64,000 nt of DNA from an uncultured Bacteroides sp. (GTDB lineage Bacteria > Bacteroidota > Bacteroidia > Chitinophagales > Chitinophagaceae), in assembly GCA_902168085.1 (NCBI GenBank), contig CABHOP010000078.1, positions 33 through 64,032 on the forward strand, in the 5' to 3' direction. Made by a program: the position numbers and the translations under genes. This document shows positions 4,756 through 36,162 of this stretch, one piece after another. The notes below the pieces were generated by a model. It worked only from the letters and a program-made list of their open reading frames with translations. It had not been told where the DNA came from and searched no databases. The first letter of the stretch is position 1; every line of letters starts with the position of its first letter.

Positions 4756-4761
4756 GTTGTA

Positions 4762-6006: not shown

Positions 6007-6398
6007 TTAACAGCCATTTTTGATATAGCCTCCAATAGAACTTCCACTTTTTCGCCTACTGTTTTGTACTGTTCCGCAGCCCGCATTGCATTGAAAACTC
6101 TTTGGCCATCTGTATCGGAAATATGAAAGCGATGGGTAATTTGGTTGATATTAATACCGATTGAACGTAACTCCTTTCTAATACTCGCGAGTTCTTCCAT
6201 AACGGCATTCATCGAGTCGTCACGGTTGATAACCGTGATTTTTTCCTGAGATAATATTCTTCTTGCCACCTCTCCGACAGATGAGCAGTTTGAATTATCA
6301 TGCAGCTTTTCCAGCTTATCAAACAATGCTTCTGTGATTCGAAATGATATCAGCCTGGTCAATAATTTTTCCCTTGATATTGCCTTGTTCCTGCCCAT
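5994..6398 (-). CDS. Relaxosome accessory ribbon-helix-helix protein (MobA/MobC-type)
   Basis: ISFRITEA...SSVGEVARRIL...IGININQITHRFH; overlaps the relaxase start. Confidence 0.85.
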   Translation of the reverse strand: MGRNKAISREKLLTRLISFRITEALFDKLEKLHDNSNCSSVGEVARRILSQEKITVINRDDSMNAVMEELASIRKELRSIGININQITHRFHISDTDGQRVFNAMRAAEQYKTVGEKVEVLLEAISKMAVKWLQ

Positions 6399-6474
6399 GG
6401 ATGTTCAGTTTCCAGGTAATGGGAAAGCGCAAGTTCCGCGGCGCTTTAGTCCCTTATGAGCCGGGCGAAGAAGG

Positions 6475-6509
6475 GCAAGATTATTTTTGTAGACAAAAAT
6501 ACATCTTGC
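6475..6509. other. Candidate oriT hairpin
   Basis: GCAAGAT-TATTTTTGT-AG-ACAAAAATA-C-ATCTTGC inverted repeat (one bulge), directly upstream of the mob operon. Confidence 0.65.
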
Positions 6510-6550
6510 CACACACGCCAACCGTGGGTTGCTTCCCATCCCTGGTTTTG

Positions 6551-6868
6551 CTAATACTGCTGTTTGTTGGACTCCAGCATGTCTTTTATATCGTCTCCGG
6601 AGTAATATATCAAACCGCCGACTCGGGTAAACGGAAGTTTGCCGCTAATGCGAAGGCTAAGTAATTTCCCTCTGGATATATTCAGCAGCTTTTGAACCTC
6701 TGATGATTTCATCCACTTTTTTGTTATACCTGTATGTTCCTGTTGCTGGAGGAGGTTCCGAATTTCTTGAAATAATTGCGTCCTAAACGCCGCCAGATCA
6801 TCTTTGGTTAATAATTGTGCGGGTAGATTTCCTTCGCGCCACTGACTTAAACTCACTGCTTCGCTCAT
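6551..6868 (-). CDS. Excisionase-like helix-turn-helix (HTH_17) protein
   Basis: LLTKDDLAAFRTQLFQEI...KWMKSSEVQKLLNISRGKLLSLRISGKLPFTRVGGLIYY, the standard Bacteroidetes element HTH. Confidence 0.88.
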   Translation of the reverse strand: MSEAVSLSQWREGNLPAQLLTKDDLAAFRTQLFQEIRNLLQQQEHTGITKKWMKSSEVQKLLNISRGKLLSLRISGKLPFTRVGGLIYYSGDDIKDMLESNKQQY

Positions 6869-7272
6869 AAAATTGTATTTAGGTTTTGAGCAAATGTGAT
6901 GGATTGACCCTGTAGTGTTTTACATGTTGGTATGTAAGATGGTCGATTTTTTTTTCGCCACTAATTGTGTAGGCGAAGTGGAAACAGATCAAAGGTTTTG
7001 CTGAAGTTTCAAGGTATGTGCTGCAAACATGAATTCGCTTACTTGCAGATAACTGACATTCTGCAAATAAGATCATCTCAAGATTAAAGGTAGCCTCGAT
7101 GATCTCTTAGATTCAAATCTTGAGGCAGTGGAAATTTTTTTTAACCTGTGTCCGTTAGCCGATAAGTGCCATGTCGGTCATTGATAAGAATAGGGGAATT
7201 TCTCATAGCAAAAGTCCATTATTTGGTCCTGCATTTAATGTCGTGAACCGTCGTACAAATAAAAAATATCCG

Positions 7273-7743: not shown

Positions 7744-8076
7744 CTAATAAACAGATATCGTATACTGCTTCCCTTGGTTACATAACCGGTTGTATTGAGC
7801 ATGTGTTCCGATCCAACAAACAAATAGATGTACCTGCCTGTCTCCAAAAGCATACTTACATATCACCCGATAATTGTTGCCGCCGATATCAAAAACAACT
7901 CTTTCCGTTCCATTGCCTAACAGGTCCGCAGAGCCAAAACTGATTTGAATATCTTCAGGGCGCTCCCAGTCTGCATACTTCAGGATGTTTAACCAAATTT
8001 CCAGCGACGGCCGGCTTCGTGCGTTTGCGGCGCCATAAGCCTCAATCGTTTGCTTTTTAATAAGGTGCACTTTCAT
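7744..8076 (-). CDS. higB: HigB-family toxin
   Basis: WERPEDI...FGSADLLG...RVVFDIGGNNYRVIC...WIGTHAQY; toxin-first gene order. Confidence 0.92.
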   Translation of the reverse strand: MKVHLIKKQTIEAYGAANARSRPSLEIWLNILKYADWERPEDIQISFGSADLLGNGTERVVFDIGGNNYRVICKYAFGDRQVHLFVCWIGTHAQYNRLCNQGKQYTISVY

Positions 8077-8103
8077 AGAAATGCGTTATAAAGTTACGAA
8101 TAA

Positions 8104-8120
8104 GTTCACAAAAAGTGAAC
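8104..8120. promoter_or_regulatory. Candidate HigA operator
   Basis: Perfect GTTCAC-N5-GTGAAC palindrome about 30 bp upstream of the higB start. Confidence 0.55.
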
Positions 8121-8138
8121 AATTTTTTCATGGATGAA

Positions 8139-9359
8139 TTAGAGACCGGCGTTAAGCTTTTGTTTAAGGAGTTTCATATCATCGCTTACTTTACGGTCGA
8201 GTATCTTGGCATAATGCTGTGTTATCTTGATATTCTTATGTCCGAGCATCTTGCTAACAGATTCTATGGGAACGCCGTTAGATAAAGTGACAGTGGTAGC
8301 GAAAGTGTGCCGAGCTATATGGAAGGTCAGTACCTTGTTTATTCCGCATAGGTCTGCGATCTCTTTCAGGTATGCATTCATCTTTTGATTGCTCAACACA
8401 GGAAGCACTCTGTCTTCAGAAACGCATTGTGGGTGATCATTATATTTGTCAACAATTCCCTGGGCGATCGGAAGTAGTGGTATGCGCGATTGGGTATCCG
8501 TTTTTTGCCTTTCGGTAAATATCCACTTATCACCATCTACACCCAATGCAATTTCGGAACGCTTCAGCTTCTTCACATCGGCATATGCAAGTCCTGTGAA
8601 ACAACAGAACAGAAAAATATCCCGTACCTGACCCAATCGTTCCGTAGCAAAGGGCTTGTCAGCCATAATCTGTAGCTCACCGTCAGAGAGATAGTGACGC
8701 ACTACTTCCCGTTTTGTCATTTTAAAACCCAGAAACGGATCCTTTTGCAGCCACCCATTTCTGATACAGATATTGACAATCTTTCGAAAGTTGCCGATAT
8801 ACTTCATGGTCGTATTATGGTTGCAATTACGAATACTTTTTAACCAGAACTCGTAGTCGGTGACAAATTCATAATTCAACTTGTCGATGGCGATATCTTC
8901 AATACCATACTTCCATTTTAAAAAGGACTTCGTATGATCAAAAGATGTCTTATAGCGCTCCAAGGTCGCTGCGGAGTAGTCCTTGTTAATTAGTTGGCCC
9001 ATTTTATTATTATGCTCTGTAAAAACCTCACACAGCATACGCGACTTGTCGGCAACCCCGGACCATTTGGCTTTAAAAGTTTCAACAGTTAACGGCTCAT
9101 CGCTTTGGAGGATTTCCTTTTGGTAGGTATACACCTTTGCCCGCAACGTGTCAAGGTAAACGTTTACGCGCTTGGCATCTTCCGAACTACCTTTCATTCG
9201 GCCGGCCTCAGTCGACCATTTTGATCTGTCCACATCCCTATGTGTACTTACTTCAAATCTGGTTCCATTAATTGTTACCCGCAGGTAGATAGTAGCCTGT
9301 TCATCTGACTTTTTCCTCTTTGATTTTGCAAAAAACAAAATGCTTAGTCGCGTCTCCAT
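8139..9359 (-). CDS. Site-specific tyrosine integrase (arm-binding + SAM-like + catalytic domains)
   Basis: IYLRVTING (arm-binding domain), RDIFLFCCFTGLAYADV, TFHIARHTFATTVTLSNGVPIESVSKMLGHKNIKITQHYA (catalytic R-H-R-H-Y). Confidence 0.96.
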   Translation of the reverse strand: METRLSILFFAKSKRKKSDEQATIYLRVTINGTRFEVSTHRDVDRSKWSTEAGRMKGSSEDAKRVNVYLDTLRAKVYTYQKEILQSDEPLTVETFKAKWSGVADKSRMLCEVFTEHNNKMGQLINKDYSAATLERYKTSFDHTKSFLKWKYGIEDIAIDKLNYEFVTDYEFWLKSIRNCNHNTTMKYIGNFRKIVNICIRNGWLQKDPFLGFKMTKREVVRHYLSDGELQIMADKPFATERLGQVRDIFLFCCFTGLAYADVKKLKRSEIALGVDGDKWIFTERQKTDTQSRIPLLPIAQGIVDKYNDHPQCVSEDRVLPVLSNQKMNAYLKEIADLCGINKVLTFHIARHTFATTVTLSNGVPIESVSKMLGHKNIKITQHYAKILDRKVSDDMKLLKQKLNAGL

Positions 9360-9458
9360 ACTTATCTGCTTTAAAAGTTTCTAAATATAAATTCTTCACG
9401 TTTCCGGAATTACCAAGTTGGTATGTCTGAGAGCCTTATTTAGCAAGGCTTTCAGACG

Positions 9459-9502
9459 AATTCGGTGATACCGATTCGGGGAATAGTTCGTATCACCGAA
9501 TT
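9459..9502. repeat. 13-bp inverted repeat in the att region (possible integrase arm-type sites)
   Basis: AATTCGGTGATAC (9459-9471) / GTATCACCGAATT (9490-9502), between the integrase and the tRNA. Confidence 0.5.
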
Positions 9503-9554
9503 TTCCCCTAGCAGATTGAACAAGATTAGCTGAGTTAAGACAGGCCAAAAACAA

Positions 9555-9588
9555 AAAAGCCCGTAAAATCAGCGTTTTACGAGCTTTT
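9555..9588 (-). terminator. Hairpin downstream of tRNA-Ser
   Basis: AAAAGCCCGTAAAA...TTTTACGAGCTTTT imperfect inverted repeat with an A/T tail. Confidence 0.55.
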
Positions 9589-9612
9589 GAACAATTTTGG
9601 TATTGATACCAG

Positions 9613-9697
9613 CGGAGAGAGAGGGATTCGAACCCCCGGACCTTTGACAGTCAACGGTTTTCAAGACCGCCGCATTCGACCGCTCTGCCATCTCTCC
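9613..9697 (-). tRNA. tRNA-Ser(TGA)
   Basis: Reverse complement GGAGAGATGGCAGAGCGGTCGAATGCGGCGGTCTTGAAAACCG...GGTTCGAATCCCTCTCTCTCCG has a long variable arm, discriminator G and no encoded CCA. TAATTTTG promoter element at 9703-9710. Confidence 0.97.
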
Positions 9698-9849
9698 GGG
9701 GGCAAAATTAGACAAGCAGACTTATTTTCAAAACATTTTTTGGCAGAGGAGGCATATATTTTATAATGCCATGTTAAATAAACTGCTGAAAGCCATATCC
9801 AACAAACCTAAACAGCGAACTTTGCGTATCTAAACGGTAAAGAGGAAAT

Positions 9850-10527
9850 ATGATATACCGCACATTAAAGCACACCGTATTATTAGTATTATTACTACAA
9901 CTTACCGCTTGCGCACAGGATGGTAAATATGAAAAATCGAAAACTTTTAGCCAAATGAATAATGCAAAGCCAACGGGGAATGAGAAAAAACTGGAAGTAG
10001 CCACTTTTGCCGCGGGCTGCTTTTGGTGTGTAGAGGCACAGTATCAACAATTGAAGGGCGTAGAAAAAGTAGAATCGGGCTATATAGGGGGTAGCGTACC
10101 CAATCCTACCTACAAACAGGTTTGCACCGGTAACACCGGCCATGCTGAAGCTTGCAACATCTATTACGACCCCAGCATAATAAGTTATGACGAACTATTA
10201 GCCGCCTTTTGGACGGCTCACGACCCTACACAGTTAAATCGCCAGGGAAATGATGTAGGTACACAATACCGTTCTGCCATCTTTTATCACAATGATGAAC
10301 AAAAGCAGAAAGCGGAAGACTACAAACGTAAGCTGAACGAAGAAAAGGCATATAATGATGATGTAGTAACGGAGATATCCCCCTACTCTACTTTCTACAA
10401 AGCTGAAGATTATCATCAAAACTATTACAACGATAACCCATCTCAGGGCTATTGTGTGTTCGTAGTAAAACCCAAATTAGATAAGTTTAAGAAAGTATTT
10501 GCCGGCAAGCTGAAGGATAGCAAGTAA
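9850..10527 (+). CDS. msrA: Peptide-methionine (S)-S-oxide reductase, exported
   Basis: GCFWC active site, GHAEAC, HDPTQLNRQGNDVGTQYRS and AEDYHQNYY; N-terminal signal-like segment. Confidence 0.96.
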   Translation: MIYRTLKHTVLLVLLLQLTACAQDGKYEKSKTFSQMNNAKPTGNEKKLEVATFAAGCFWCVEAQYQQLKGVEKVESGYIGGSVPNPTYKQVCTGNTGHAEACNIYYDPSIISYDELLAAFWTAHDPTQLNRQGNDVGTQYRSAIFYHNDEQKQKAEDYKRKLNEEKAYNDDVVTEISPYSTFYKAEDYHQNYYNDNPSQGYCVFVVKPKLDKFKKVFAGKLKDSK

Positions 10528-10538
10528 AAGGAGATGAC

Positions 10539-10585
10539 AAAAACAAAGAGCCGTTATTGCTAAGCAATGGCGGCTCTTTGTTTTG
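10539..10585 (+). terminator. Intrinsic terminator
   Basis: CAAAAACAAAGAGCCGTTATTGC-TAA-GCAATGGCGGCTCTTTGTTTTG. Confidence 0.8.
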
Positions 10586-10660
10586 CAATCAGTTTGTTAA
10601 AAAAACGAAACTACTTCGCTGCGCTATGTACTGCATATACTTTTGCATAAAACAAAAAAT

Positions 10661-10963
10661 ATGAACCTCCAGCAGGCAAAACAAATAATAGACCAACTGG
10701 CAGTGCACAAGGGGAACTCCATGAAGCCTTACAGTGCACCTATTAAAGGTTTTGTTATCATCCCGAACGATCAACAGGCTTATATGCAGATGTATAAAAG
10801 CATGGCAGATGAAAAGCTTTCTTTCAACCAGGCCATATCTCCATATAGCGACGATGTAACGATAGTGGTATATTTTGATGCAGCAAACACTTCAGATAAT
10901 GCCTATTGCAGTTACACACAATTTGTTGCTACCAATAACCTGGACATACAAATCCCCAGCTAA
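10661..10963 (+). CDS. Hypothetical protein
   Basis: Only plausible ORF in the gap. TACTTTTG promoter element at 10638-10645 favours ATG 10661 over 10643; hairpin at 10975-10998 follows. Confidence 0.65.
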   Translation: MNLQQAKQIIDQLAVHKGNSMKPYSAPIKGFVIIPNDQQAYMQMYKSMADEKLSFNQAISPYSDDVTIVVYFDAANTSDNAYCSYTQFVATNNLDIQIPS

Positions 10964-23482: not shown

Positions 23483-24688
23483 TTATATATTTTTCATAAA
23501 CTCACTTACACTCTCCATCACATGGCTTATCTGTGCATCATTCAGGCCATGATGGCAAGCCAGCAGCATACCGCCACGCATTACCTTGTCAGACTCCGGA
23601 TAGCCATCTGCAGCAGCTTTGTGCGGATAATGTTTGAAGCCGGGTTGACGCAGGATGTTACCTGTGAACACCGTACGTGTTTGTATATTCCTTTTCTCCA
23701 GGAATATCTGCAGGTCGCGGCGAATGAATGGAGCACTTTCTCTAACCGTCACTGCAAAGGCCAGCCAGCCCGTGCGCGAATCAGGCAGTTGTTTCGGCAG
23801 TATAAAATGCTCTTCGTACTGGCTGAAGAATTCGCGCATGCGGCCATAGTTGCGTGTGCGGGTGTCTATATTATGCGCCAGGTCGTCCAGCTGCACATTA
23901 CCAAATGCTGCACCCATTTCAGATGGCTCAATGTTATAACCCGGCTCTTCAAATACGAATTTCGCATCGTAAGGGATACCCTCTATCTCCACATTGAAAC
24001 GGTTCTCTATTTTTTCTGATTCTACAAACAGGGAAGAACTGCGACCCCAGCTACGCAACAGGCGGCCACGGTCATAAAAAGCTTCTGTATTCACACACAG
24101 CATACCGCCATTACCGGCACAGTTGATAATGTGCGAACCGTAGAAGCTGGTAGTGCTCATATCAGTATAGCGGCCCGATGTTTTACCGCCTATTTCAGCA
24201 CCCAGTGTATCAGCAGAGTCTTCCAGCAGGAAGATGTTGTATTTATCGGCCAGGTCGCGCAGGGCTTTCCAGTCGGGCAGGTTCCCTATCAGGTTGGGTA
24301 TGATCATCGCCTTGGTCTTAGGCGTTATCATTTCTTCTACTTTATTTACATCTATATTGTAAGTACCTTCTTCTACATCTACAAAAGCAGGCACCCAGCC
24401 TTTCTTTACTTGTGGCGCTACGGTTGTAGAGAACGTAAGTGCAGGTGTAATGATTTCTGAACCCGGCTCATAATCCAGCAGGTCTGCCGCCAGGTATAGC
24501 GCCGAAGAACCACTATTCACCATGATACCATACTTTTTACCATACAGTGCGGCAACGCGTTCTTCCATTTTACGCACATGCTTGCCCATTTGGGTGCTGC
24601 TGCGCAATACCTGCATTACGGCTTCTATTTCCGCTTCGCCATATACGGCTTTACCGTACGGCACATGTATGTAATCTGTCTGTAGCAT
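23483..24688 (-). CDS. DegT/DnrJ fold-I enzyme, RfbH/ColD-like (His in the catalytic-Lys position)
   Basis: NSGSSAL, EDSADTLG, SFYGSHII (H instead of K), GRLLRSWGR and GYNIEP. Confidence 0.82.
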   Translation of the reverse strand: MLQTDYIHVPYGKAVYGEAEIEAVMQVLRSSTQMGKHVRKMEERVAALYGKKYGIMVNSGSSALYLAADLLDYEPGSEIITPALTFSTTVAPQVKKGWVPAFVDVEEGTYNIDVNKVEEMITPKTKAMIIPNLIGNLPDWKALRDLADKYNIFLLEDSADTLGAEIGGKTSGRYTDMSTTSFYGSHIINCAGNGGMLCVNTEAFYDRGRLLRSWGRSSSLFVESEKIENRFNVEIEGIPYDAKFVFEEPGYNIEPSEMGAAFGNVQLDDLAHNIDTRTRNYGRMREFFSQYEEHFILPKQLPDSRTGWLAFAVTVRESAPFIRRDLQIFLEKRNIQTRTVFTGNILRQPGFKHYPHKAAADGYPESDKVMRGGMLLACHHGLNDAQISHVMESVSEFMKNI

Positions 24689-24824: not shown

Positions 24825-27668
24825 TTAGTTCTGAACCGGTTTACCGTTCCTGTCCAGCTCTATCACTTCATAGCCCAGTTTGCTGATGCCTTCCCACACT
24901 TTAGCTTTATCACCTACCAGCACAATGTTCACGCCACCCATTTCAGGCATAGCGGCAGCTCTTAGTTTGCCAAGGTCTGCCAGTGTCATCTTGTTCAGCA
25001 CCTCTGTTTGCTTGCCGGGGTAATTGGCAGGCAGGTTGTAATCCAGTATGCGCGACAGGAATATGGCTTTCTGGAATTGAGACTCATATTTACGTGCATC
25101 GCTCTGGCCCAATGATTTTTTGGTAAATGCCAGCTCGTCTTCCGTAGGGCCTGCTTTTTTATACTCATTCCATATGCTGATGATGTCTTTCAGGGCACTA
25201 TCGGTAGCATTCGCTTTGATACCTGCACTGAAAGTATAGCTACCGGTATATTTATCCGCATCAAAGTTGGCACGGGCACCATAAGTCCAGCCTTTCTCTT
25301 CACGCAGGTTCAGGTTCAAGCGGCTATTGAAGGCACCACCAAACGGATAGTTAAGGATGCCTGATTTATAATAGTTCTCGAATGCATCATACTTCATATC
25401 GGTAACCGTACCTATCCGAAACTCTGTTTGCGCAGCGTTCGGCACATTTACAAAGTATATTTTGGTTTTAGCCACCTTTGGCGCTGCGGATAATTGTGGC
25501 AGAACTACATTCTTTTCCGGCAGTTGTTGCAGGAATGCCAGCTTCGGCAACAGTTCATCCTGCGAAACATCACCTACTACTATTATATCCATGTCTTTTT
25601 TAGACATATTGGTGTTATAATAATCTTGCACATCACTCAGCTGAATGTTGCTAACTGTGGCTTCCGTACCACCACCGGGCCAGCCTAGTATATTGTTCTC
25701 GCCATACAGCACGTTGTTATACACTACGCTCGCTACATAGTTTGGTCGCACCATAGCATTTTTTATGCCTTCTATATTGCGCTTTTTGATGTTATTGAAT
25801 GCCGCTTCTGTAAACTGCGGGCGCAGTATGCGCTCTTCCAGCAGTGCCATAGTTTTATCCAGGTTTTTGCGCAGCGAGCGAACGCTTACATCAACGCCGT
25901 CTGTACTGGCATTTACACTAATGCTGCTGCCCAGTTTATCCAGCGCTACGCTGAATGCTTCTGCGGAATAATTCTTGGTATCTTCTTCCATCATATCTGC
26001 AAATATGCTGGTAAGGCCGGCTTTGTTAATAGCGCCATTTTCCAGCAGCCTGCCGCCTTTGAAATGCAGCAGCACTGTTACTACAGGTATCTCGTCAGAC
26101 TTTGCACCTATTACATTAATGTTGCCGGGCAGTTCTTTCTTCCAGAATTCAGGCACTTTCACTACAGGGTTGTCGCCATTACCAGGTATTTTACTGCGAT
26201 CAAAGTTGTCTTTTGCTTTGTTATATTTCAGCCCGTTATAACCATAATCCGGAGCTTTATAACCATCGGTAGCAACAGTATAATTATCCGGCGCTACTTT
26301 ATCTGCATAATCTTTGGTCAGCACACTTACCACCAGGGAATGCTTGCCTTTTATATATTGATTGTACACGCGCATTACATCTTCTTTGGTAACGCTTGTA
26401 TAACGTTTCAATTCCTTGCCTATGTAGTTTGCATCACCGGTAAAAGTATAGAACGCAGCCAGCTGAGAAACTTTCCCTGACACGCTTTCCAGGCCATTGA
26501 TCGCATTTGCTTCCATACTGTTGGTAAACTTCTCAATATCTTCATCCGTTACACCGCGCTTTTCAAATTCAGCTTCGGCTTCCCTCACTTGCTTTTCCAT
26601 ATCAGCTAATGTCTGCCCGGGGAATGGTATTACACTGAATACAAATTCTCCCGCCAGTTCTGATGTGGAGTTATAAACACTCACGTTTACGGCTTTTTGT
26701 GCTTTCACCAGGTTTTTATACAAAATCGAGTTCTTGCCTTGTCCCAGTATTTCGGCCAGGCAATCCAGCGGAGCTTCGTCTTTATGATATGTAGGCACAG
26801 TAGGATATACCACGCGCAGCGATGGCAGCTTTGCATAGTTATCCTGCATAGATATATAGCGGTCTTTTTCAAGCGCTACCGCAGGCACCTTCACAGGTGT
26901 CACTTCCGGCCCTTTAGGTATCGAGCCAAAGTATTTCTCAACCAGTTTCACTACATCTTTCGCATTCACGTCTCCGCCTACGGTTACTACCGCATTATTA
27001 GGGCCATACCAGCGCAGGAAGAAGTTTTTGAGATCTTCTACATTTACCCTGTTCAGGTCTTCTATATAGCCTATTGTCAGCCATGAGTATGGGTGTCCAT
27101 ATGGATACAGATTTTTAGCGGTCACTTCGCTCACCAGTCCGTAAGGCACGTTATCATAACGCTGGCCTCGCTCGTTCTTCACGGTAGCGCGCTGCACTTC
27201 AAATTTCTTTTGTGTTACCGCATCCAGCAAAAAGCCCATACGGTCGGCTTCCAGCCATAGCATTTTTTCCAGCTGGTTGCTGGGCACTGTTTCAAAGTAG
27301 TTGGTCCTGTCACGGTTGGTAGTACCGTTCAGCGTACCGCCTGCTTCGGTTATGATTTTAAAATGTTGCTCGTCTGCTACGTTATCAGAACCCTGAAACA
27401 TCATATGCTCAAAGAAGTGAGCAAAGCCTGACTTACCTATCTCTTCCCTTGCAGAACCCACGTGGTAAGTAACATCTACATGTACTATGGGGTCTGAATG
27501 GTCTTCGTGCACCAGTACGGTAAGGCCGTTGGGCAATACATACTTTTCGTAAGGTATTACAACCTCATTCCCCTTCCTGGCTACTTTTTCTACCAGCTTA
27601 GCCTGCGCTGCTACTTGTTGTATACCCAATAATGATAGGGCATACAATGACAGTACGATACGTTTCAT
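24825..27668 (-). CDS. M16 family zinc metallopeptidase (PqqL/pitrilysin-like), exported
   Basis: Signal peptide, inverted zinc motif HFFEHMMF, NGTTNRDRTNY and RLNLNLREEKGWTYG. Confidence 0.93.
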   Translation of the reverse strand: MKRIVLSLYALSLLGIQQVAAQAKLVEKVARKGNEVVIPYEKYVLPNGLTVLVHEDHSDPIVHVDVTYHVGSAREEIGKSGFAHFFEHMMFQGSDNVADEQHFKIITEAGGTLNGTTNRDRTNYFETVPSNQLEKMLWLEADRMGFLLDAVTQKKFEVQRATVKNERGQRYDNVPYGLVSEVTAKNLYPYGHPYSWLTIGYIEDLNRVNVEDLKNFFLRWYGPNNAVVTVGGDVNAKDVVKLVEKYFGSIPKGPEVTPVKVPAVALEKDRYISMQDNYAKLPSLRVVYPTVPTYHKDEAPLDCLAEILGQGKNSILYKNLVKAQKAVNVSVYNSTSELAGEFVFSVIPFPGQTLADMEKQVREAEAEFEKRGVTDEDIEKFTNSMEANAINGLESVSGKVSQLAAFYTFTGDANYIGKELKRYTSVTKEDVMRVYNQYIKGKHSLVVSVLTKDYADKVAPDNYTVATDGYKAPDYGYNGLKYNKAKDNFDRSKIPGNGDNPVVKVPEFWKKELPGNINVIGAKSDEIPVVTVLLHFKGGRLLENGAINKAGLTSIFADMMEEDTKNYSAEAFSVALDKLGSSISVNASTDGVDVSVRSLRKNLDKTMALLEERILRPQFTEAAFNNIKKRNIEGIKNAMVRPNYVASVVYNNVLYGENNILGWPGGGTEATVSNIQLSDVQDYYNTNMSKKDMDIIVVGDVSQDELLPKLAFLQQLPEKNVVLPQLSAAPKVAKTKIYFVNVPNAAQTEFRIGTVTDMKYDAFENYYKSGILNYPFGGAFNSRLNLNLREEKGWTYGARANFDADKYTGSYTFSAGIKANATDSALKDIISIWNEYKKAGPTEDELAFTKKSLGQSDARKYESQFQKAIFLSRILDYNLPANYPGKQTEVLNKMTLADLGKLRAAAMPEMGGVNIVLVGDKAKVWEGISKLGYEVIELDRNGKPVQN

Positions 27669-27744: not shown

Positions 27745-28239
27745 CTATTGCTGCGTAAGGGTATAAAGAATGCCAATGTTATATATACCCCCGTTATATT
27801 CAAAGCCGGGAGAAAGGCTCATGTCTATATCAAAAGTATTACCGCTGGTACCGGCATTACCCCGGCTACCCGTTTTCAATGTAACACCACCTGTAGAAAG
27901 GCTTACAAAGCTCGATGAGCCGTTTCTGCGTATGCCCACTACGCTCGCCGGCATGTTTGTGCTCGCACCCGTTGTCATAGGCTGGAAATAAGCGCTTTGC
28001 GCGGAAACACTTACCTGCCAGCTTACATTACTCTTAATGGCAATGGTAGCAGAATTATTAATGGTTTGCCCGCTGAAATAGTCATTGGGAGTATTAAATG
28101 ATACCACCCCACTCAGGTTGGTAATGTTCAGGTTCAGCACCGAATAGATATCTACATTGCCCGATGTGCTGGAACTGAAACTCTGCCCGTGAACGGTGCA
28201 GGAAAACAACAACAGCCATATGATGATCCAACTTCTCAT
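27745..28239 (-). CDS. Secreted pilin-like subunit (paralogue 1)
   Basis: Signal peptide (VHG|Q); SFNT..Y..G, KSN..W.VSV.A, MP; C-terminal PGFEYNGGIYNIGILYTLTQQ shared with its neighbours. Confidence 0.55.
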   Translation of the reverse strand: MRSWIIIWLLLFSCTVHGQSFSSSTSGNVDIYSVLNLNITNLSGVVSFNTPNDYFSGQTINNSATIAIKSNVSWQVSVSAQSAYFQPMTTGASTNMPASVVGIRRNGSSSFVSLSTGGVTLKTGSRGNAGTSGNTFDIDMSLSPGFEYNGGIYNIGILYTLTQQ

Positions 28240-28709
28240 GGCCTTGTCATAGTAAACAGTATAGTGAAATTATAATGTCCCGGCGGGTATGCATAGCCCG
28301 GTGCTTTCAGTATCAGGTTATAGTTAAAACTATAGGTTTTATTCGTCTTCGACTGTGTAAAGAGGCGCTGATCGCTGGATGTAAGGGTGAGCGCAGAGGT
28401 TACTAAATTACCCGCATTGGGCGAATTATCAGATGTCCAGTCGAGCTGTATGGGATAGGTGCCGGTAACAAAACCACTGGGGCCTAAAAAAGAAGACATA
28501 CGGGCGTATATGGAGCAGTTACTGCTCTTGGTCCTCACTATCAATGTTATAGCCCCCGCTATGGTTTGGTCGTTCTCCAGGTCTGCAGGGTCGCTGCAGG
28601 TAAAATTGAGGCCGGTATTGGTGTAAAGTTGCAAATTATTGGTAGCATTCTGTGCTGTTGCACAGAATGGCAGATACCATAACAAAACCAGCAGGGTTAT
28701 AATTCGCAT
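28236..28709 (-). CDS. Secreted pilin-like subunit (paralogue 2)
   Basis: Start at MRIITLL (28709), signal peptide (ATA|Q), C-terminal PGYAYPPGHYNFTILFTMTRP; 4-bp overlap with paralogue 1. Confidence 0.55.
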   Translation of the reverse strand: MRIITLLVLLWYLPFCATAQNATNNLQLYTNTGLNFTCSDPADLENDQTIAGAITLIVRTKSSNCSIYARMSSFLGPSGFVTGTYPIQLDWTSDNSPNAGNLVTSALTLTSSDQRLFTQSKTNKTYSFNYNLILKAPGYAYPPGHYNFTILFTMTRP

Positions 28710-28785
28710 GCAGCAGGAATAATTCGCAGAGGTATTTTGATATTGTTGGTAAAAATAGTTGTTTTGTGTATCATTTAAAACAAAT

Positions 28786-29592
28786 ATGAAGCGTACTTGC
28801 TTACCCCTTTTTTTCTCAGCATTATTCATCTGTCTTTCTTTTTTTGCTAAAGCACAAAATGTAGGCGCTTACCCCACTACATTAGATTTTCGCCTTGGCG
28901 GTGGCCTTAGCGAAAGCCAGGTGATCAACATTTCCAACACATCGGGTAAAAAAGTGCAATTCAAGTTGTACCTCAACGATTGGGTACGCGACAGTATGGG
29001 TGGCCATATTTATTACCGCGCTGATACGCTCAGTCGCTCCTGCGCCAAATGGGTGGCCCTTAGCGATAATTTCGTAGAACTTGAATCCGGCCAGGTGAAG
29101 CAAGTGACGGTAAAGCTTTCTATGCCGGCCGATGCTGAAGCTACCAAAGAAATGAAATGGGCGATGCTTTTCATAGAAACGGTGAAGGAAGCGAATGCTA
29201 CAAATGACAAAACAACACAGGCCAGTGTAAACAACCTGCTGCGTATAGGAGTGCATATATACCAAACGCCGCCTGCACTTACTAATAAAGAAGTAAAGGT
29301 TTATGACCTGAAGCCTTCTCCCGAAGGGCTGAATATTTACAACCTGATTTGCCAGAACACGGGCGATGTAATGCTGGAATGCAAATCGTACCTGGAACTG
29401 GCAGCTATCAGCGATGGCAGCAAAACCAAGTTAGACCCGATAGAGTTTCCCATGTTCCCCGGCCAAAAGCGATATGTGAGTTTTGAGCTGCCCAAAAACA
29501 TGGCCAAAGGAAAATACTCGGTGCTGGGCGTAGTAGATGGTGGCGAAGATATGTCGCTGGAAGCCATTGAAAGCCAGCTGGAAGTGAAATAA
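28786..29592 (+). CDS. Putative periplasmic pilus chaperone (PapD/EcpB- or DUF916-like)
   Basis: Signal peptide (AKA|Q); YPTTLDF, INISNT, LYLNDW, SCAKWV, KWAMLFIE, RIGVHIYQTP, NTGDV, FPMFPGQKR and GKYSVLGVVDGG suggest two Ig-like domains. Confidence 0.6.
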   Translation: MKRTCLPLFFSALFICLSFFAKAQNVGAYPTTLDFRLGGGLSESQVINISNTSGKKVQFKLYLNDWVRDSMGGHIYYRADTLSRSCAKWVALSDNFVELESGQVKQVTVKLSMPADAEATKEMKWAMLFIETVKEANATNDKTTQASVNNLLRIGVHIYQTPPALTNKEVKVYDLKPSPEGLNIYNLICQNTGDVMLECKSYLELAAISDGSKTKLDPIEFPMFPGQKRYVSFELPKNMAKGKYSVLGVVDGGEDMSLEAIESQLEVK

Positions 29593-29748
29593 CACCTTAC
29601 AACCGCAGGTTAATTTTCTATTACATCATTAACAACTCGTTTGCAAATGTTAATCAGTTGTTATACATTCGTATCATAATACGATGCAATTGTGTATCGG
29701 CTAAGGAAGAGAGTTTTTATATAGAGAAATAATTAACCTGGCAAGGTT

Positions 29749-30279
29749 ATGAAGAAGAGGATCCTTACCATTATTGTTTTACTTATGGCTTTTGCAGTCC
29801 GTACCCTGGCAGAATCGGGTACCGCACAGCAATCCATACTATTGAATTTACTACCCATTATAGAAATTGCCAACGTATCCGGCAATACCATCAGCCTTTC
29901 TTTCAATACGATATCTCAATACGAAAACGGGCTTAATACCGGCAAACAGGTATTTAAAGTACGTTCCAACAGGGGCTTTATGGTTTCTGTAAGCGCCGAT
30001 GCCCCTACTTTCTCTTATAGCGGCATCGGCACTTCTGAAAAAGCAATGCCTGTTGATAACACATTATTTCTGTCGCTGGTAGAAAACAGTACGAAGGGCG
30101 AAATAGCTAATGGCGTCCATACGGATATGCCCCTATCTGCTACCGCAAAAGATATACTTGTAAACTGTGGCCGCGGCGATGAACAAAGCTTTGCAGTGAA
30201 CTATAAGGCAAAACCAGATCTTACATACCCTGCCGGCAACTACCAGGTAGGCATTATATATACGGCTACACAACCATAG
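29749..30279 (+). CDS. Secreted pilin-like subunit (paralogue 3, likely major)
   Basis: Signal peptide, QQSILLNLLPIIEI N-terminal strand, C-terminal PDLTYPAGNYQVGIIYTATQP; has its own terminator. Confidence 0.58.
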   Translation: MKKRILTIIVLLMAFAVRTLAESGTAQQSILLNLLPIIEIANVSGNTISLSFNTISQYENGLNTGKQVFKVRSNRGFMVSVSADAPTFSYSGIGTSEKAMPVDNTLFLSLVENSTKGEIANGVHTDMPLSATAKDILVNCGRGDEQSFAVNYKAKPDLTYPAGNYQVGIIYTATQP

Positions 30280-30303
30280 CCCCCCTAACCCCATGAAAAC
30301 TAC

Positions 30304-30330
30304 AGCCACACATTCTTGTGTGGCTTTTTT
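30304..30330 (+). terminator. Intrinsic terminator
   Basis: AGCCACACA-TTCT-TGTGTGGCTTTTTT. Confidence 0.78.
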
Positions 30331-30390: not shown

Positions 30391-30822
30391 ATGCGGCAAA
30401 CTGCTTTTATGAGGTGTTCTGTATTTATTTTGGGTATTTCTATGCTCTTAGCTGCATCTTCTTGTAGAAGCAGCAAAAAAAGGAACAATCCCTGCAGGTC
30501 GAATGTGATATGCACCGAAATGTTTGCAATGGTAACTATAAACATTAAAGACACCACCGGTGAGGGTGTGAAACTGGATAGCGCTTATACCATAAGGAAG
30601 AGTACTAATGAAAAGATACACCATGAACAAACCACGTTTATAGATGGTTCCTACATTGTGCTGGATGACAACTATCACAAAAAATTCGTGAACACAAACG
30701 ACAGCTTCTACTTTTACGGATTTTTAAATGGCACGCAGGTAGTCAATGAAGGCTACCTGATAACCAGCGACTGCTGCCACATCCGGAAGACAGGCGGCAA
30801 TACAGATGTTACACTCAAATAA
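30391..30822 (+). CDS. Hypothetical lipoprotein
   Basis: Lipobox LAASSC; paired Cys (CRSNVICT, SDCCH). Confidence 0.7.
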   Translation: MRQTAFMRCSVFILGISMLLAASSCRSSKKRNNPCRSNVICTEMFAMVTINIKDTTGEGVKLDSAYTIRKSTNEKIHHEQTTFIDGSYIVLDDNYHKKFVNTNDSFYFYGFLNGTQVVNEGYLITSDCCHIRKTGGNTDVTLK

Positions 30823-30823
30823 T

Positions 30824-31585
30824 TTACAATCGCGACAGTGTAGATGTACAAGTATCATTTACCGTAGCACCCCCCACCCTATATGAAATGATGATCGTAT
30901 TGTCATCAAAAGTACCGTTACCGCTAAACGTCACACCATTAATAGACTGTGCAGGAATTACAAGTGTATTATCGGCCGGGTTCAGGTTAGCGTAAATTAT
31001 ATTGCTCCATACGCCACTCCACAGGCCTTTAAAGTTCACGCGGTTCTGGGTTGTCTGGTCTTTCTCTACATCTACGGTATCGCCTACATTCCCCCCTTGT
31101 GTGCAAGCGGCCTGCTCCCTGAATAAACCTATCAAGCCATCAGCCGCATTGCTGTATGGAAGCACAGTAAGTGTCATAGTAGAATCGGTAAAGCCACTAC
31201 TCTGGCTAGACCCGCGCACTATTACATCATAGGTGCCTGCTTTTACACGTGTACATTTTATAGTCAGCATGGTATTGAATGAGGGCTTGCCTATCGTAAT
31301 GGGCGTAAAGGTAGCTGTAGCGCCTGCCGGTAAGTTCCTCACCGCCATCATAATATCTTCTATTTTGCCGGATGTCCTTTCTATAGATAGTTGCATGGTA
31401 CCTTCCCCTATGCGCTCCATGGTCAGGTCTTTCACGCCATTGATTTTATACTTCAGGTCGCCGTAGTTATTGCCATAGTCAGGTGTTGGGGTTTCTGTTT
31501 TACTGCCGCAACTGCCTATCAATGCTGCCATAGCTATAGCCGCAACGGACACACATTTCCTGCCTATGCTTTGAAACTTTACCAT
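30824..31585 (-). CDS. Hypothetical lipoprotein
   Basis: Lipobox LIGSC, then an Ig-like and beta-rich region. Confidence 0.7.
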   Translation of the reverse strand: MVKFQSIGRKCVSVAAIAMAALIGSCGSKTETPTPDYGNNYGDLKYKINGVKDLTMERIGEGTMQLSIERTSGKIEDIMMAVRNLPAGATATFTPITIGKPSFNTMLTIKCTRVKAGTYDVIVRGSSQSSGFTDSTMTLTVLPYSNAADGLIGLFREQAACTQGGNVGDTVDVEKDQTTQNRVNFKGLWSGVWSNIIYANLNPADNTLVIPAQSINGVTFSGNGTFDDNTIIISYRVGGATVNDTCTSTLSRL

Positions 31586-32480: not shown

Positions 32481-32921
32481 ATGCTCAATTACAAACCCCT
32501 GGAACACGAAAAGGAAAAAGCATCCAATGGATACCTGATGTCGGTAATGGCCGTAATGGCAGGCTTGCCGCTACCTATCGTCAATCTGTTAGCCACATTT
32601 CTTTTCTTCATCCTTAACCGTCGTGCTACACCTTTTGTTAAATGGCATTGCACGCAGGCGCTTGTTTCGCAGCTCACTATTTTCATTATGAACAGTGCAG
32701 CCCTCACATGGACCATCAAAGCCTTTACCGGCAGCACACCGTTTACCGATAAATACTTTGCCTATATTATAGTAGTTCTTGTTTTTAATGTAGCCGAAGT
32801 CGTTGTCAATATTTCTGCAGCCATACGTGTTCGCAAGGGTGCTACCGTACGCTGGTGGTTTTGGGCAGCCCTTGCCGATATGTTGGTTCGCAAACCTGCC
32901 TCACCTTATCACGCACAATAG
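32481..32921 (+). CDS. DUF4870-like membrane protein
   Basis: EHEKEKASNGYLMS...LPLPIVNLLAT...FVKWHCTQAL. Confidence 0.75.
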   Translation: MLNYKPLEHEKEKASNGYLMSVMAVMAGLPLPIVNLLATFLFFILNRRATPFVKWHCTQALVSQLTIFIMNSAALTWTIKAFTGSTPFTDKYFAYIIVVLVFNVAEVVVNISAAIRVRKGATVRWWFWAALADMLVRKPASPYHAQ

Positions 32922-32923
32922 TT

Positions 32924-33706
32924 ATGAAAAAACTGCTATTCCAATTCACTATACTTGCTGTGGTATTTGCAGGCGCATGGTATGCACTAAGCCAGTTGCC
33001 CTGGTCTAAATGGCTGCATGCTTCCAGCTTTAATAAGAAACGCCAGGAAAAACTGGGCGAGCTTTTTATCAAAACCCATCGGCTCGATAAAAAAGAAATA
33101 ACGAATGACAGCGTAGTATATATTATCAATAGCCTTAAAAACAACATTTGTATGGCTAACCATATAGACACTGGCAATATTAAAGTGTATGTGTTTCGAG
33201 ACGAGCAAGTAAATGCGTTTGCATTGCCCGGTGGCAGCATCGTTGTCAATTCAGCACTCATTAGCTTCTGCGATAGCCCCGATATGCTGGCCGGTGTTAT
33301 AGCGCACGAAATAGGGCACATTCAAAATGGCCACATCAGCAAACGCATGGCTAAAGAAGTAGGCTTGAGTATCCTCATGATGTTTGGTGGCGAGAATATG
33401 GGCTTGCTGAAAGAACTGTTGCGTTCTGTTACATCCGGCAAATTCGACAGATCACAGGAAAGCGAGGCCGACCAAAGTGCTGTTTATTATCTGGACAAAA
33501 CCAATATCAATCCTGCGCCTCTGGCTGATTTTTTTGAGAAAATGGGCAAAACATATGGCAACATGCCCGGCATGCTGGAATGGGTAAATACACACCCCAA
33601 TGCTAAAGAACGCACCAGCATGGTAAGGAAACTGGCTAAGAAAAAAACATACCGCACTGCACTGCCTGTTGGCGAATGGGCATACCTGCACAGTTACAAT
33701 TACTAA
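32924..33706 (+). CDS. M48 family metallopeptidase
   Basis: VNAFALPGG, AHEIGH, SQESEAD and THP; N-terminal anchor. Start at MKKLLFQ. Confidence 0.9.
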   Translation: MKKLLFQFTILAVVFAGAWYALSQLPWSKWLHASSFNKKRQEKLGELFIKTHRLDKKEITNDSVVYIINSLKNNICMANHIDTGNIKVYVFRDEQVNAFALPGGSIVVNSALISFCDSPDMLAGVIAHEIGHIQNGHISKRMAKEVGLSILMMFGGENMGLLKELLRSVTSGKFDRSQESEADQSAVYYLDKTNINPAPLADFFEKMGKTYGNMPGMLEWVNTHPNAKERTSMVRKLAKKKTYRTALPVGEWAYLHSYNY

Positions 33707-36162
33707 TTATACTCTTCTACCTTTTTGCCCGATGGGAAATACCGAAAACGGTAAACGATAGAACACATGTAATAACTGCCTACCCTATTCACGCTGCGGT
33801 CTTCAAAATAATTATCGCCTACCACACGTTGCACATTCGGGTAGTTATTAAATATATCGTAGGCCTGCAGCCTTACAGAAAAGCCACGCGGCTTATCAAA
33901 AGATTTATCCAGCATGGCATTCACCAGCAGGAAATCTTTATCCAACCCGGCCGATAAGCCATCGTTCAGCACATAGTTAATGTAATAAGTAAACTTAAAA
34001 TTGAGCGGAAGCGTAATAGTACCGGTACTACTCACATTATGCGTCTGCAATATATTGGTGGCAGTGGCAGGGTTCTCAACACCATTCATACGGTAGCTAT
34101 AGCTTAGGTCGCCCTCATACCACTTATCCGATAAGTACACCATCCGCACGGAAGGCTGCAGGTTATAGTTGCCGATACTTAATTGCTGCCCGTTGGTTAT
34201 CGTTATGTTGTTTGAGTAGCCACCATTCAAAGAAAATGTCGTTTTCAAAGCTCTCGCAAAAAGCGGTATGGTATAATTACCATTGACATTTACACTATAG
34301 TTACCATTAGCATTTACAGGCGTCGTTATCCTGCGCGATGCGTTGATGTCCGATTTATTAATGATCTTCTGATCGGTACGGCTGTAGCGTATCGATACCC
34401 AGGCCATGCGCTGGCTTTTTATATCGTAATAGTTGTACGATGCCGCGATATTATGATTTATCTCCGGCCGCAAAGACGGGTTGCCTATGTATATATTCAG
34501 GCTATCGGTATAGTCCGGTATAGGCTGCAGTTGTGTCAATTCCGGCGAGCGTATGCTGCCGTTATAATTCAGGTTATAGGTATTGTTCTTAGGTGTAGTA
34601 TACCGCGCAGAAAGATTGGGGAAGTAATTGATACCCTTTTGCTCCACCACATTCTTTGTTGTGCCCGATAGTTCGCTATACCTCTTATACGGGCGTGCAT
34701 CCAGCCCTGCACTGGCTGTTATCCGCTCTGCACTGTACTGGTAAGTAAGCCCCACAGGGTTTTCCATATTACGGTTCACATAACCCCGGCTCTGGTTGGT
34801 GTCTTTTACCAGCTCACCATTATTATTCTGGTTCACCAGCTTGTCGCTGGTACTATTGGCATACACATTATTATATGCCAGCGATAGCAAATGTCGTTTG
34901 CCCAATGGCTCTGTATACCTCAGGTTTACATTCGTGCTGGTATTCTCTTTATTTTCTTCGGTTACAAAGGCATTATAATTGGTACCGGGCGGTGTATAAT
35001 ACTGGTTGATGTTATCATTATTGCCATGCAGCTTATCCTTTCCGTAGTTGATGCTGGCCCCTATAGATACCGTTCTGCCTTCTTTCCTAAATCTTTTACG
35101 ATAGGTATCAGACAAGGTAAAGCCGTATGCATCTGTATTCGCTTTATTATCGGCCTGGCGCTTAAAGTTGATAGCATCTTCCTGCTGGTAAGCCGTCATA
35201 TCATTACTGGCATTGCCCGTGTTTGCTGTGCGGTAATAAGCGCTGCCGTCCAGTTGCATCTGGTTCTTTTCATTTAGCTGGTAGCTGCTGCGCAGGTTCA
35301 GCCTGTGCTGGCGGGTATGGCTGTTCTGGTTGGTGGTTTGCCTGCGCAGCAAGGTGCTATCGCCTTGCAGGTAGGTAGTGCGGAATAAAGACTGCTGCAG
35401 CGAGTTATCACTGTTCGATACATCGTAGCTCCCATTCAGCCGAAACGCTTTAGTACGTTCATAGCCAAAGTTGATATGCCCGCTCTGCTTGGTATTTACC
35501 CCGTTCTGGGGCCGGCTGGCTGCCCTGGCATTGTCACCGCTGTTACGGTCCACATCACTGAGGCCGGTGTTGTTCGCATTACCAATACCGGTTATCCGTA
35601 TCGAGTCTGTTATATAATTCGCAAACACGCCACCCTGGTAACGGTCTTTAGTGCCATACCCTGCAGCCGCACGGCCATATACACCGCCCTTATACTTCTT
35701 TTTGAATTGCAGGTTGATGATTTTCTTGTCCGTATTGGGCTTTACCCCGCTAAACTGGGCATCCTCATCATAATAATCGGCCACCTGTATCTTTTCCAGC
35801 ACCTCAGCGGGCAGGTTTTGGGTAATGGTACGCAGGTCGTCCGATGTATATTCTTTACCATTGATGTATATCTTGGTTATTTCCTTGCCCTGTACTGTAA
35901 TCTTCCCATCACTACCTACTTCCACACCCGGCAGGCGTTTCAGCACATCTTCTGTAGTAGCCATAGGGTTCTTGTAAAAAGAATCTACCGTATAGCTCAC
36001 AGTATCTTTGCTGATTTTTATTTTGGTACGGGCTTTAATGATTACCTCGCCTATGTTCATCGTATCCCTCAGGCGCGACTTTGCAGAGTCTGCATTTTGT
36101 GCAAACACAGCATCAGCAAAACCCAGCAATAAACAAAAAAGGACGACAAGCCGTTTCCACAT
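33703..36162 (-). CDS. Outer-membrane beta-barrel protein with plug-like N-terminus (TonB-receptor-like)
   Basis: DTVSYTVDSF...EDVLKRLPGVEV..DGKITVQGKEITKIYINGKE; barrel repeats; GNPSLRPE. Confidence 0.85.
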   Translation of the reverse strand: MWKRLVVLFCLLLGFADAVFAQNADSAKSRLRDTMNIGEVIIKARTKIKISKDTVSYTVDSFYKNPMATTEDVLKRLPGVEVGSDGKITVQGKEITKIYINGKEYTSDDLRTITQNLPAEVLEKIQVADYYDEDAQFSGVKPNTDKKIINLQFKKKYKGGVYGRAAAGYGTKDRYQGGVFANYITDSIRITGIGNANNTGLSDVDRNSGDNARAASRPQNGVNTKQSGHINFGYERTKAFRLNGSYDVSNSDNSLQQSLFRTTYLQGDSTLLRRQTTNQNSHTRQHRLNLRSSYQLNEKNQMQLDGSAYYRTANTGNASNDMTAYQQEDAINFKRQADNKANTDAYGFTLSDTYRKRFRKEGRTVSIGASINYGKDKLHGNNDNINQYYTPPGTNYNAFVTEENKENTSTNVNLRYTEPLGKRHLLSLAYNNVYANSTSDKLVNQNNNGELVKDTNQSRGYVNRNMENPVGLTYQYSAERITASAGLDARPYKRYSELSGTTKNVVEQKGINYFPNLSARYTTPKNNTYNLNYNGSIRSPELTQLQPIPDYTDSLNIYIGNPSLRPEINHNIAASYNYYDIKSQRMAWVSIRYSRTDQKIINKSDINASRRITTPVNANGNYSVNVNGNYTIPLFARALKTTFSLNGGYSNNITITNGQQLSIGNYNLQPSVRMVYLSDKWYEGDLSYSYRMNGVENPATATNILQTHNVSSTGTITLPLNFKFTYYINYVLNDGLSAGLDKDFLLVNAMLDKSFDKPRGFSVRLQAYDIFNNYPNVQRVVGDNYFEDRSVNRVGSYYMCSIVYRFRYFPSGKKVEEYN

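Follow-up and report, generated by a model that had tools for sequence, protein, structure and literature searches.

A conserved Bacteroidota gene cluster as a candidate chaperone-assisted donor-strand pilus of the TLP-1 class

Cryo-EM has given the structures of two tubular 8-nm fibrils that were obtained by filtering pond water and whose source was not identified (Wang et al., PNAS 2024, PMC11494351). Their TLP-1 protomers are joined by donor-strand exchange, in which the N-terminal strand β1 of protomer n+4 fills the cleft formed by β2a, β2b and β7 of protomer n. The best match of TLP-1 among the predicted structures of the AlphaFold database (AFDB) is an unannotated Flavobacteriales protein, whose N-terminus is disordered in the AlphaFold model, and neither mass spectrometry nor metagenomics identified the organism or the genes (PMC11494351). 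A follow-up preprint leaves the source of TLP-1 open. In the WxL clusters of Firmicutes, a hairpin of WxLIP is predicted to become ordered upon binding of WxL and to complete the WxL sandwich (PMC10599100). Here we describe a cluster of four genes and compare it with these and other systems. It lies in a 64,000-nucleotide stretch of contig CABHOP010000078.1 (the window) from an uncultured Bacteroides sp., placed by GTDB in the Chitinophagaceae, and encodes three small secreted subunits, S1, S2 and S3, together with a chaperone-like protein, C. The most likely product of the four genes, with a probability that we put at roughly 0.6, is a donor-strand pilus or surface polymer that belongs to the TLP-1 class and is assembled with the help of a chaperone. 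The cluster itself is a real and conserved system that has so far been left unannotated.

The closest relatives of the subunits are TLP-1a and TLP-1b, and neither CfaB nor WxL. When the model of S3 was compared with the PDB using Foldseek, the first match was TLP-1a (9IKJ chain A), with an E-value of 1e-4, a probability of 1.00, and TM scores of 0.59 on the query and 0.46 on the target. Further matches were to FimF/FimG, CfaB (third, 1.6e-3), PapE and FimA, with CsuA/B at rank 27. An earlier reading of this DNA from its letters (the sequence-only reading) had proposed comparison with CfaB, CsuA/B and WxL. The first two do appear, at ranks 3 and 27, but TLP-1a stands ahead of both and there is no WxL domain in the top 50.

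The relationship to TLP-1 is also found by profile searches. The first profile of the S family matched the PDB sequences of TLP-1b at 9e-4 and TLP-1a at 1.8e-3, and a profile of 124 sequences matched them at 1.2e-5 (TLP-1b, 9IKK) and 2.5e-5 (TLP-1a, 9IKJ). The alignment spans residues 5–66 of TLP-1, that is, the N-terminal region in which the donor strand β1 has been placed (PMC11494351), and there is a weak collinear match at the motif G...F.V.Y..P. In the reverse direction, residues 5–66 of TLP-1b were searched against 3,652 open reading frames (ORFs) of related loci: the best 40 were all members of the S family, the top one at 9e-7, while the window's own S3 on its own scores just 0.012. 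In both respects examined, fold and sequence, the S subunits thus belong with the TLP-1 class. As with S, the signal peptide of TLP-1 is removed and its N-terminus is disordered in the monomer prediction (residues 22–37 in S3), and its best AFDB look-alike belongs to the Bacteroidota, as does the host of the S genes. There are also differences. The TLP-1 protomers have about 236 aa and carry large outward loops, compared to about 135–155 aa for the mature S proteins, and the significant sequence alignment is confined to the N-terminal third.

The subunit genes lie on both sides of C. S2 (28236–28709, minus strand) encodes a secreted subunit of 157 aa, counted from MRIITLL, and is followed by S1 (27745–28239, minus strand), which encodes a secreted, pilin-like subunit of 164 aa and is the second gene of the S2–S1 operon; the stop of S2 overlaps the start of S1 as ATGA. 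S3 (29749–30279, plus strand) encodes a secreted, pilin-like subunit of 176 aa. All three, and C, start with a Sec-type signal peptide. Pairwise BLASTP gave E-values of 5e-10 for S1 and S3, 6e-7 for S1 and S2, and 3e-5 for S2 and S3, the last through the C-terminus only; judged by these alignments, the similarity is beyond chance and the three are true paralogues. The C-terminal motif G..Y......(Y/F)T.TQ is nearly invariant in 81 members of the family. The strand motif noticed earlier at the ends of the three proteins is therefore a family feature, and the two strings quoted for the third paralogue, AGNYQVGIIYTAT and QQSILLNLLPIIEI, are both present in S3.

The S family sorts into three orthologous types, which correspond to S1, S2 and S3. 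In S1 the N-terminal extension is of full length (QSFSSSTSGNVDIYSVLNLNI...) and the protein ends in the tail ...GGIYNIGILYTLTQQ; it matches the family hidden Markov model at 2e-55. The mature N-terminus of S2 is about 12–13 residues, or one strand, shorter than those of S1 and S3; its tail is YNFTILFTMTRP. Two cysteines, in NFTC and NCSIYA, are conserved in the S2 type. Because S2 lacks this one N-terminal strand and has two conserved cysteines that are likely to form a disulfide, it is a candidate tip or initiator subunit. The conserved cysteines of the S2-type subunits are consistent with disulfides formed outside the cytoplasm. A search with the single sequence of S3 found 12 relatives only, a profile search of a word-indexed collection found 83, and an exhaustive profile search brought this to at least 1,070 clusters (50% identity). 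The S proteins fit none of the models of Pfam or NCBIfam; the Pfam scans of the family covered 13 members at E≤10 and 124 members at E≤1, with nothing consistent.

The structure of S3 predicted by AlphaFold2 is an all-β domain, with a mean predicted local distance difference test (pLDDT) score of 86.3. The first ordered strands are 38–43 and 47–52 and the last is 163–174 (NYQVGIIYTATQ). By the model, the first two would correspond to β2a and β2b of TLP-1, and 163–174 to the last strand lining the cleft. Residues 22–37, which contain the conserved amphipathic segment AQQSILLNLLPI, do not form a strand in the monomer model and have lower confidence. Within this region, residues ~26–35 (AQQSILLNLL) are the candidate donor strand, and S3 is a candidate rod subunit.

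The pilins of type V pili are made as lipoprotein precursors that an Arg/Lys protease cleaves; they are much larger, have two domains and are not known to use a chaperone. Type V pili of the FimA/Mfa1 class resemble the present system in being from the same phylum and, in principle, in polymerising by strand exchange, but the S proteins are small and single-domain and have no conserved lipobox, since the signal-peptide cysteines of S1 and S2 are not kept in their orthologues. A type V pilin was rejected on the ground of the lipobox. The Pfam family Mfa2 (the Mfa1/Mfa2 anchor-protein family) matched one of the 124 subunits, with an E-value of 0.036. Cargo of the type IX secretion system (T9SS) was rejected as well: NCBIfam gave no match to a T9SS C-terminal domain or Por_Secre_tail in the S proteins or C, and the S C-terminus, where the sorting domain of a cargo protein would sit, is a conserved structural strand. 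Coordinates, BLASTP and NCBIfam are thus in agreement with the sequence-only reading, which had described three Sec-exported paralogues of 157–176 aa with neither a lipobox nor a T9SS C-terminal domain.

C (28786–29592, plus strand) is a secreted, chaperone-like protein of 268 aa. Its AlphaFold2 model, made from an alignment of 59 sequences, has a pLDDT of 89.5 and consists of two immunoglobulin (Ig)-like β-sandwich domains, residues 26–133 and 153–267, linked through a low-confidence loop (136–149, within the variable stretch 134–152). In its predicted fold, C is a chaperone-like protein of two Ig-like domains, in line with the original description of a divergent gene of this type among the paralogues. 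The best Foldseek match in the PDB was CfaA, the class-5 fimbrial chaperone (8e-12), followed by the WxLIP protein of Enterococcus faecium, both free and bound to WxL (1.3e-11). The archaic chaperone CsuC came seventh (2e-10, TM score 0.50–0.58), and from rank 23 downwards there were Caf1M (5e-8), EcpB (8e-8) and FimC (4e-7), and also CupB2, SafB and FaeE. CfaA and WxLIP belong to the two systems that the sequence-only reading had named, and its proposal of an undescribed type of chaperone with donor-strand subunits in Bacteroidota is the one favoured here.

At the level of sequence, C may be distantly related to WxLIP, and no link to the pilus chaperones was detected. The window's C matches PF06030 (DUF916/WxLIP_PGBD) with 18.6 bits and an E-value of 0.002, against a cut-off of 27.3 bits. 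The same family was matched in 59 of 59 homologues at E≤1, mostly below threshold, with a best value of 4.9e-8, which suggests from the sequences that domain 1 of C is distantly related to DUF916. Many of the homologues also have sub-threshold matches to the MSP, ASH, Cep192 and PapD-like Ig-fold families. The Pfam matches listed for C include no pilus-chaperone family, comparison of the C family with FimC by hhalign gave a probability of 0.1, and no PDB sequence matched C alone or the profile of its family. At least 237 homologues of C were found. The 59 that were aligned are 56–76% identical to C, and nearly all are labelled hypothetical, although two of about 120 had been named PapD by a source.

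Conservation is far higher in C than in the S proteins, which is what would be expected of a periplasmic factor that serves exposed subunits. The most conserved stretch of C is R153-x-G-x-H-x-Y-x-T-P-P, with a mean column identity of 0.89 in a map of 79 sequences from three orders; in the same map the variable loop 134–152 has 0.46. Fold and conservation together suggest that segment 153–163 is a candidate donor strand of the G1 type. A conserved strand behind a floppy loop parallels both the pilus chaperones and the WxLIP hairpin, so C may act in a comparable way. As a separate observation, Cys 86, 189 and 199 of C are invariant or nearly so, and the latter two are in domain 2; this is consistent with extracytoplasmic disulfides.

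The similarity to WxLIP raises the question of whether C and S form a surface complex of the WxL/WxLIP kind, in which C would stably bind and present S at the envelope by strand insertion, with no fibre. DUF916 (PF06030) is the sole family with a sequence match in every one of the 59 homologues of C, WxLIP is the second fold match of C at 1.3e-11, the loop 134–152 with the strand 153–163 parallels the WxLIP loop that completes WxL, and no usher was found in the window. The WxL/WxLIP clusters (PMC10599100; PDB 9I25 and 9I1Y) are also similar in having several small secreted paralogues with one conserved two-domain partner, and the strand insertion predicted for WxLIP, into the incomplete sandwich of its partner, is of the kind proposed here for C. 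There are also differences. The LPXTG partner, Trp-x-Leu motifs, DUF3324 and membrane anchor of WxL clusters were not found here. C has no listed match to DUF3324, and ends in ...EAIESQLEVK with no hydrophobic stretch or membrane helix. The terminal motif of S, Y/F-T-x-T-Q, contains no Trp. The WxL family was not listed for 13 S members at E≤10, and in the scan of 124 members at E≤1 it was not one of the 25 families matched most often. A WxL domain in the subunits was rejected, since Pfam gave no signal for it and WxL does not occur in the top 50 fold matches of S3. A canonical WxL cluster was rejected as well: of its four defining features, three (DUF3324, the membrane helix and the WxL domain) were not found, while the fourth, DUF916, gives a match that is mostly sub-threshold. 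In addition, S is homologous to TLP-1, which forms polymers, and the host is a diderm without exposed peptidoglycan. A fibre-free complex of this type is accordingly unlikely. Of the WxL-like assembly suggested from the sequence, the part that concerns C is supported by the WxLIP fold match and by a mostly sub-threshold DUF916 signal; for the part that concerns the subunits, no WxL domain signal was seen.

The class-5 CFA/I pilus provides the first fold match of C and the third of S3. Further points of resemblance between the subunits and CfaB are an N-terminal strand with Pro after it, a C-terminal (A)GNY...strand of alternating hydrophobic residues, and their small size with a single domain. 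The sequence-only reading gave the termini of CfaB correctly in essence; in the PDB they are VEKNITVTASVDPVIDL... and ...AGNYSGVVSLVMTLGS. The likeness is suggestive in layout and ranks third by fold, but it is not statistically significant by sequence, the hhalign probability being 0.24 for CfaB and at most 3.3 for FimA/I/F/G/H. In addition, the present locus has no CfaC-type usher and no two-domain tip adhesin, and is in another phylum. Of the archaic Csu pilus, CsuC is a strong fold match of C and CsuA/B a lower-ranked match of S3. CsuA/B has an E-value of 0.039 with S3, a TM score of 0.48–0.53 and a probability of 0.99, but no spore-coat-U or usher Pfam match is listed for the subunits or for U (the large protein described below), and there is no CsuD-type usher. 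The Pfam family Fimbrial_CS1 was matched by one of the 124 subunits at E 0.011, and no fimbrial family was consistent across the 124. As none of the profile comparisons was significant, and the sequence tests of chaperone, pilin and usher all failed, membership by sequence of the classical and class-5 chaperone-usher families was rejected. Homology to TLP-1, fold and gene linkage on the one hand, and the failed membership on the other, suggest a system that works like the chaperone-dependent donor-strand systems but lies outside these families. The cyanobacterial CT pilus was also considered as a match and set aside: its paper concerns a pilin found only in cyanobacteria.

Homologues of C were found in at least 104 species-representative genomes, nearly all from three orders. 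These are the Chitinophagales (Flavipsychrobacter, Taibaiella, Niastella, Chitinophaga, Longitalea and Flaviaesturariibacter), the Sphingobacteriales (Mucilaginibacter) and the Cytophagales (Lacihabitans). Carriers in culture include Niastella vici DJ57, Longitalea arenae and L. luteola, Flaviaesturariibacter flavus, Chitinophaga sp. 30R24 and Lacihabitans sp. CS3-21. At least one S gene is near C in 76 of 80 loci from these orders, so the survey of gene neighbourhoods that had been suggested for the cluster bears out the association. The fixed core is S1<-S2<-|->C: an S2-type gene adjoins C and is divergent from it in most loci, and an S1-type gene is downstream of the S2-type gene in most loci. 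Two layouts are the commonest: S1<-S2<-|->C->S3, which is that of the window and of 22 loci in total, and S1<-S2<-|->C, with 18 loci.

Such conservation bears on the simplest alternative, namely that there is no assembly system: S1–S3 would be monomeric β-sandwiches of a lectin or binding type, and C an Ig-fold protein that is not related to them and is syntenic by chance. It is true that the S proteins match no Pfam or NCBIfam family and that β-sandwich folds draw many weak structural matches. The linkage nevertheless persists across three orders and through rearrangements, the subunits have specific homology to a fibril made by donor-strand exchange, the N-terminal strand, conserved and amphipathic, has no ordered structure when S3 is modelled as a monomer, and C matches chaperone folds at 1e-11. 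We consider this alternative very improbable.

The window is 98–100% identical to contigs of the Flavipsychrobacter type, and near-identical DNA occurs in metagenomes from soil, rhizosphere, sediment and activated sludge. Loci of Cytophagales and Mucilaginibacter contain tandem arrays of 4–5 S paralogues beside U and C (at 1657–4156, plus strand, of locus L078; 4495–7556, minus strand, of L069; and 4584–7137, minus strand, of L076). These arrays suggest diversification of the subunits or alternative rod subunits. Some contigs with the cluster are filed under metagenome-assembled genomes of Azovibrio restrictus, Williamsia, Dadabacteria and Sphingomonadales (L001, L050, L051 and L063). L001 (JANLJF010000002.1), filed as Azovibrio restrictus, is 100% identical to the window, and these off-phylum labels are probably errors of binning rather than horizontal spread.

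When the neighbouring ORFs were clustered, a single additional partner recurred: a protein, here named U, with a length of about 915 aa and present in 32 loci. These loci are mostly from distant genera, where U is usually just downstream of a third subunit, the one closest to TLP-1; two are in the Flavipsychrobacter clade. Examples are at 2763–5525 (minus strand) of L024, 2796–5543 (minus) of L042, 4216–6948 (plus) of L078 and 7986–10733 (plus) of L083. A metagenome scan starting from U, with a four-sequence alignment, found two loci. In both, S genes lie immediately upstream of U, and in one of them the layout is complete, with C<-|->S->S->S->U. U adjoins S genes throughout, and S, C and U are linked in 32 genome loci and in both metagenome loci. 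After its signal peptide, U comprises two Ig-like domains at the N-terminus, a central region of about 460 aa that is aromatic-rich and amphipathic-β in character, two prealbumin-like (SdrD_B/CarboxypepD_reg-like) domains in its C-terminal part, and a basic tail (FEIRQKKRxINI). This order of domains mirrors that of an usher, and we hypothesise that U is an outer-membrane assembly platform. It has no similarity to ushers in sequence: no usher family of Pfam was matched, and hhalign of the U family against FimD gave a probability of 1.7.

The distribution of U also bears on whether S polymerises by itself. In a self-assembling, chaperone-free donor-strand fibre, as in TasA, CanA and archaeal bundling pili, polymerisation would take place extracellularly or in the periplasm with no dedicated usher, and C would be a nucleator, a cap or an anchor like TapA. 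Neither the window nor most loci of its clade contain U, the fold matches of S3 include CanA at a low rank, and TLP-1 fibres were recovered free in filtered water (PMC11494351). TapA is described as acting by strand complementation (PMC10151520). On the other side, the best fold matches of C are genuine periplasmic pilus chaperones, S, C and U are tightly linked in 34 loci, as would suit a machine of the envelope dedicated to this task, and subunits exported by a diderm cell still need a route across the outer membrane. Self-assembly of this kind therefore appears rather improbable.

For a chaperone-assisted pilus or polymer, the following mechanism may be envisaged. S1, S2, S3 and C would be exported via Sec, as their signal peptides indicate. 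In the periplasm, C would fill the open cleft of a subunit with a strand, likely 153–163, which follows the flexible loop 134–152; this is suggested by its fold and conservation. By homology with TLP-1, the amphipathic N-terminal strand of a subunit (~26–35 in S3) would then displace the chaperone strand from the cleft of another subunit. The cleft would lie between β2a/b and the C-terminal YT.TQ strand, as in the solved TLP-1 fibril. The rod would be made from S3 and possibly S1, with S2 at the tip or as initiator. In the many relatives that have U, this protein probably serves as outer-membrane exit and assembly platform; the window has no U, and another route would be used here.

Several observations weigh against this interpretation. 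Comparison by hhalign linked no chaperone, pilin or usher of the classical or class-5 kind to the system by sequence. What the data show directly is the genes with their paralogy and conservation, the linkage of S, C and U, and the relationships by fold and profile; polymerisation of S, the C–S interface, the open groove of S3, the roles of the subunits, the function of U and the outer-membrane route are inferred. At least 18 loci with S1, S2 and C have no S3-type gene within 8 kb, which makes the assignment of S3 to the rod uncertain. There is no usher or U homologue within the 64-kb window, and U is absent within 8 kb in most loci of the window's clade, for which complete genomes exist (CP075895.1, OZ245820.1 and OZ246011.1). 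The centre of U had no Pfam match at E≤10 and the U family had none among PDB sequences, while a check of the amphipathicity and composition of U was compatible with a barrel and not decisive. Finally, read-length contigs from runs labelled soil metatranscriptome cover parts of S1, S2, C and S3, but because DNA carry-over is possible, this is a thin and weak indication that the four genes are transcribed.

To our knowledge, and in the literature searched, type V (lipoprotein) pili and T9SS adhesins are attributed to the Bacteroidota, and chaperone-dependent donor-strand pili are not; the search found no description of this cluster. If the interpretation is true, the cluster points to a type of chaperone-dependent pilus that has not been described in this phylum. 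It offers the TLP-1 class of fibrils a candidate locus, a host phylum, subunits, a chaperone and, in relatives, an outer-membrane platform, and the system could be tested in cultured Chitinophagaceae. None of the S, C and U families has a curated Pfam model above threshold. The resemblance of C both to proteobacterial pilus chaperones and to WxLIP of Firmicutes suggests that two-domain strand donors are older and broader than the chaperone-usher system alone. A more ambitious proposal is that the cluster stands for a widespread pathway of pilus formation, not described so far, in Bacteroidota of soil and fresh water, and that the TLP-1 class has its genetic basis here. The pathway would be made up of small donor-strand pilins, a DUF916-related two-domain chaperone that links proteobacterial pilus chaperones with Gram-positive WxLIP, and a 915-aa outer-membrane assembly protein without sequence relationship to ushers; the Flavipsychrobacter-type variant of the window, with no such gene nearby, would use a different route of export or assembly. 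This is put forward tentatively, at somewhat less than even odds.

The two operons are divergent, and the 76-bp spacer between S2 and C (28710–28785) presumably contains the promoters for both. A scan for the sigma-70 consensus gave 9 sites, compared to 7.1 expected, which is not above background, and promoter types of Bacteroidota are outside the models of the scan. The transcription unit of C and S3 is ended by a terminator-like hairpin (30304–30325, plus strand), which starts 25 nt past the stop of S3 and resembles an intrinsic terminator, with a 9-bp stem containing 5 G-C pairs, followed by the T-run TTTTTTGTTT. The ORF of S2 is open upstream to 28829, and orthologues of S2 have 157–160 aa. 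Gene callers have used the longer form of 197 aa (P0155), which has 120 nt more at its upstream end. The extension (28710–28829) does not have the character of a signal peptide, and would overlap the start of C on the opposite strand.

The four-gene cluster is bounded by a gene for an M16-type peptidase (24825–27668, minus strand) and by two genes for small lipoproteins. The peptidase was identified from its sequence as insulinase-type, with HFFEH and 947 aa. Three further genes nearby were read in the same way: a DegT-like aminotransferase of 401 aa (23483–24688, minus), an M48-type peptidase of 283 aa with HEIGH (32855–33706, plus) and an 819-aa protein of outer-membrane β-barrel type (33703–36162, minus). 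None of these four accompanies the cluster beyond the close clade, and the 819-aa protein was rejected as a local substitute for an usher, as it is not among the recurrent neighbour families. The predicted lipoproteins are directly downstream of S3 and have 143 aa (30391–30822, plus) and 253 aa (30824–31585, minus). Their genes are syntenic in 18 and 27 related loci respectively, in the close clade only, and the 253-aa protein has a weak match to NF058595, the 'lipo-invert putative C-terminal anchoring domain' (E 0.005).

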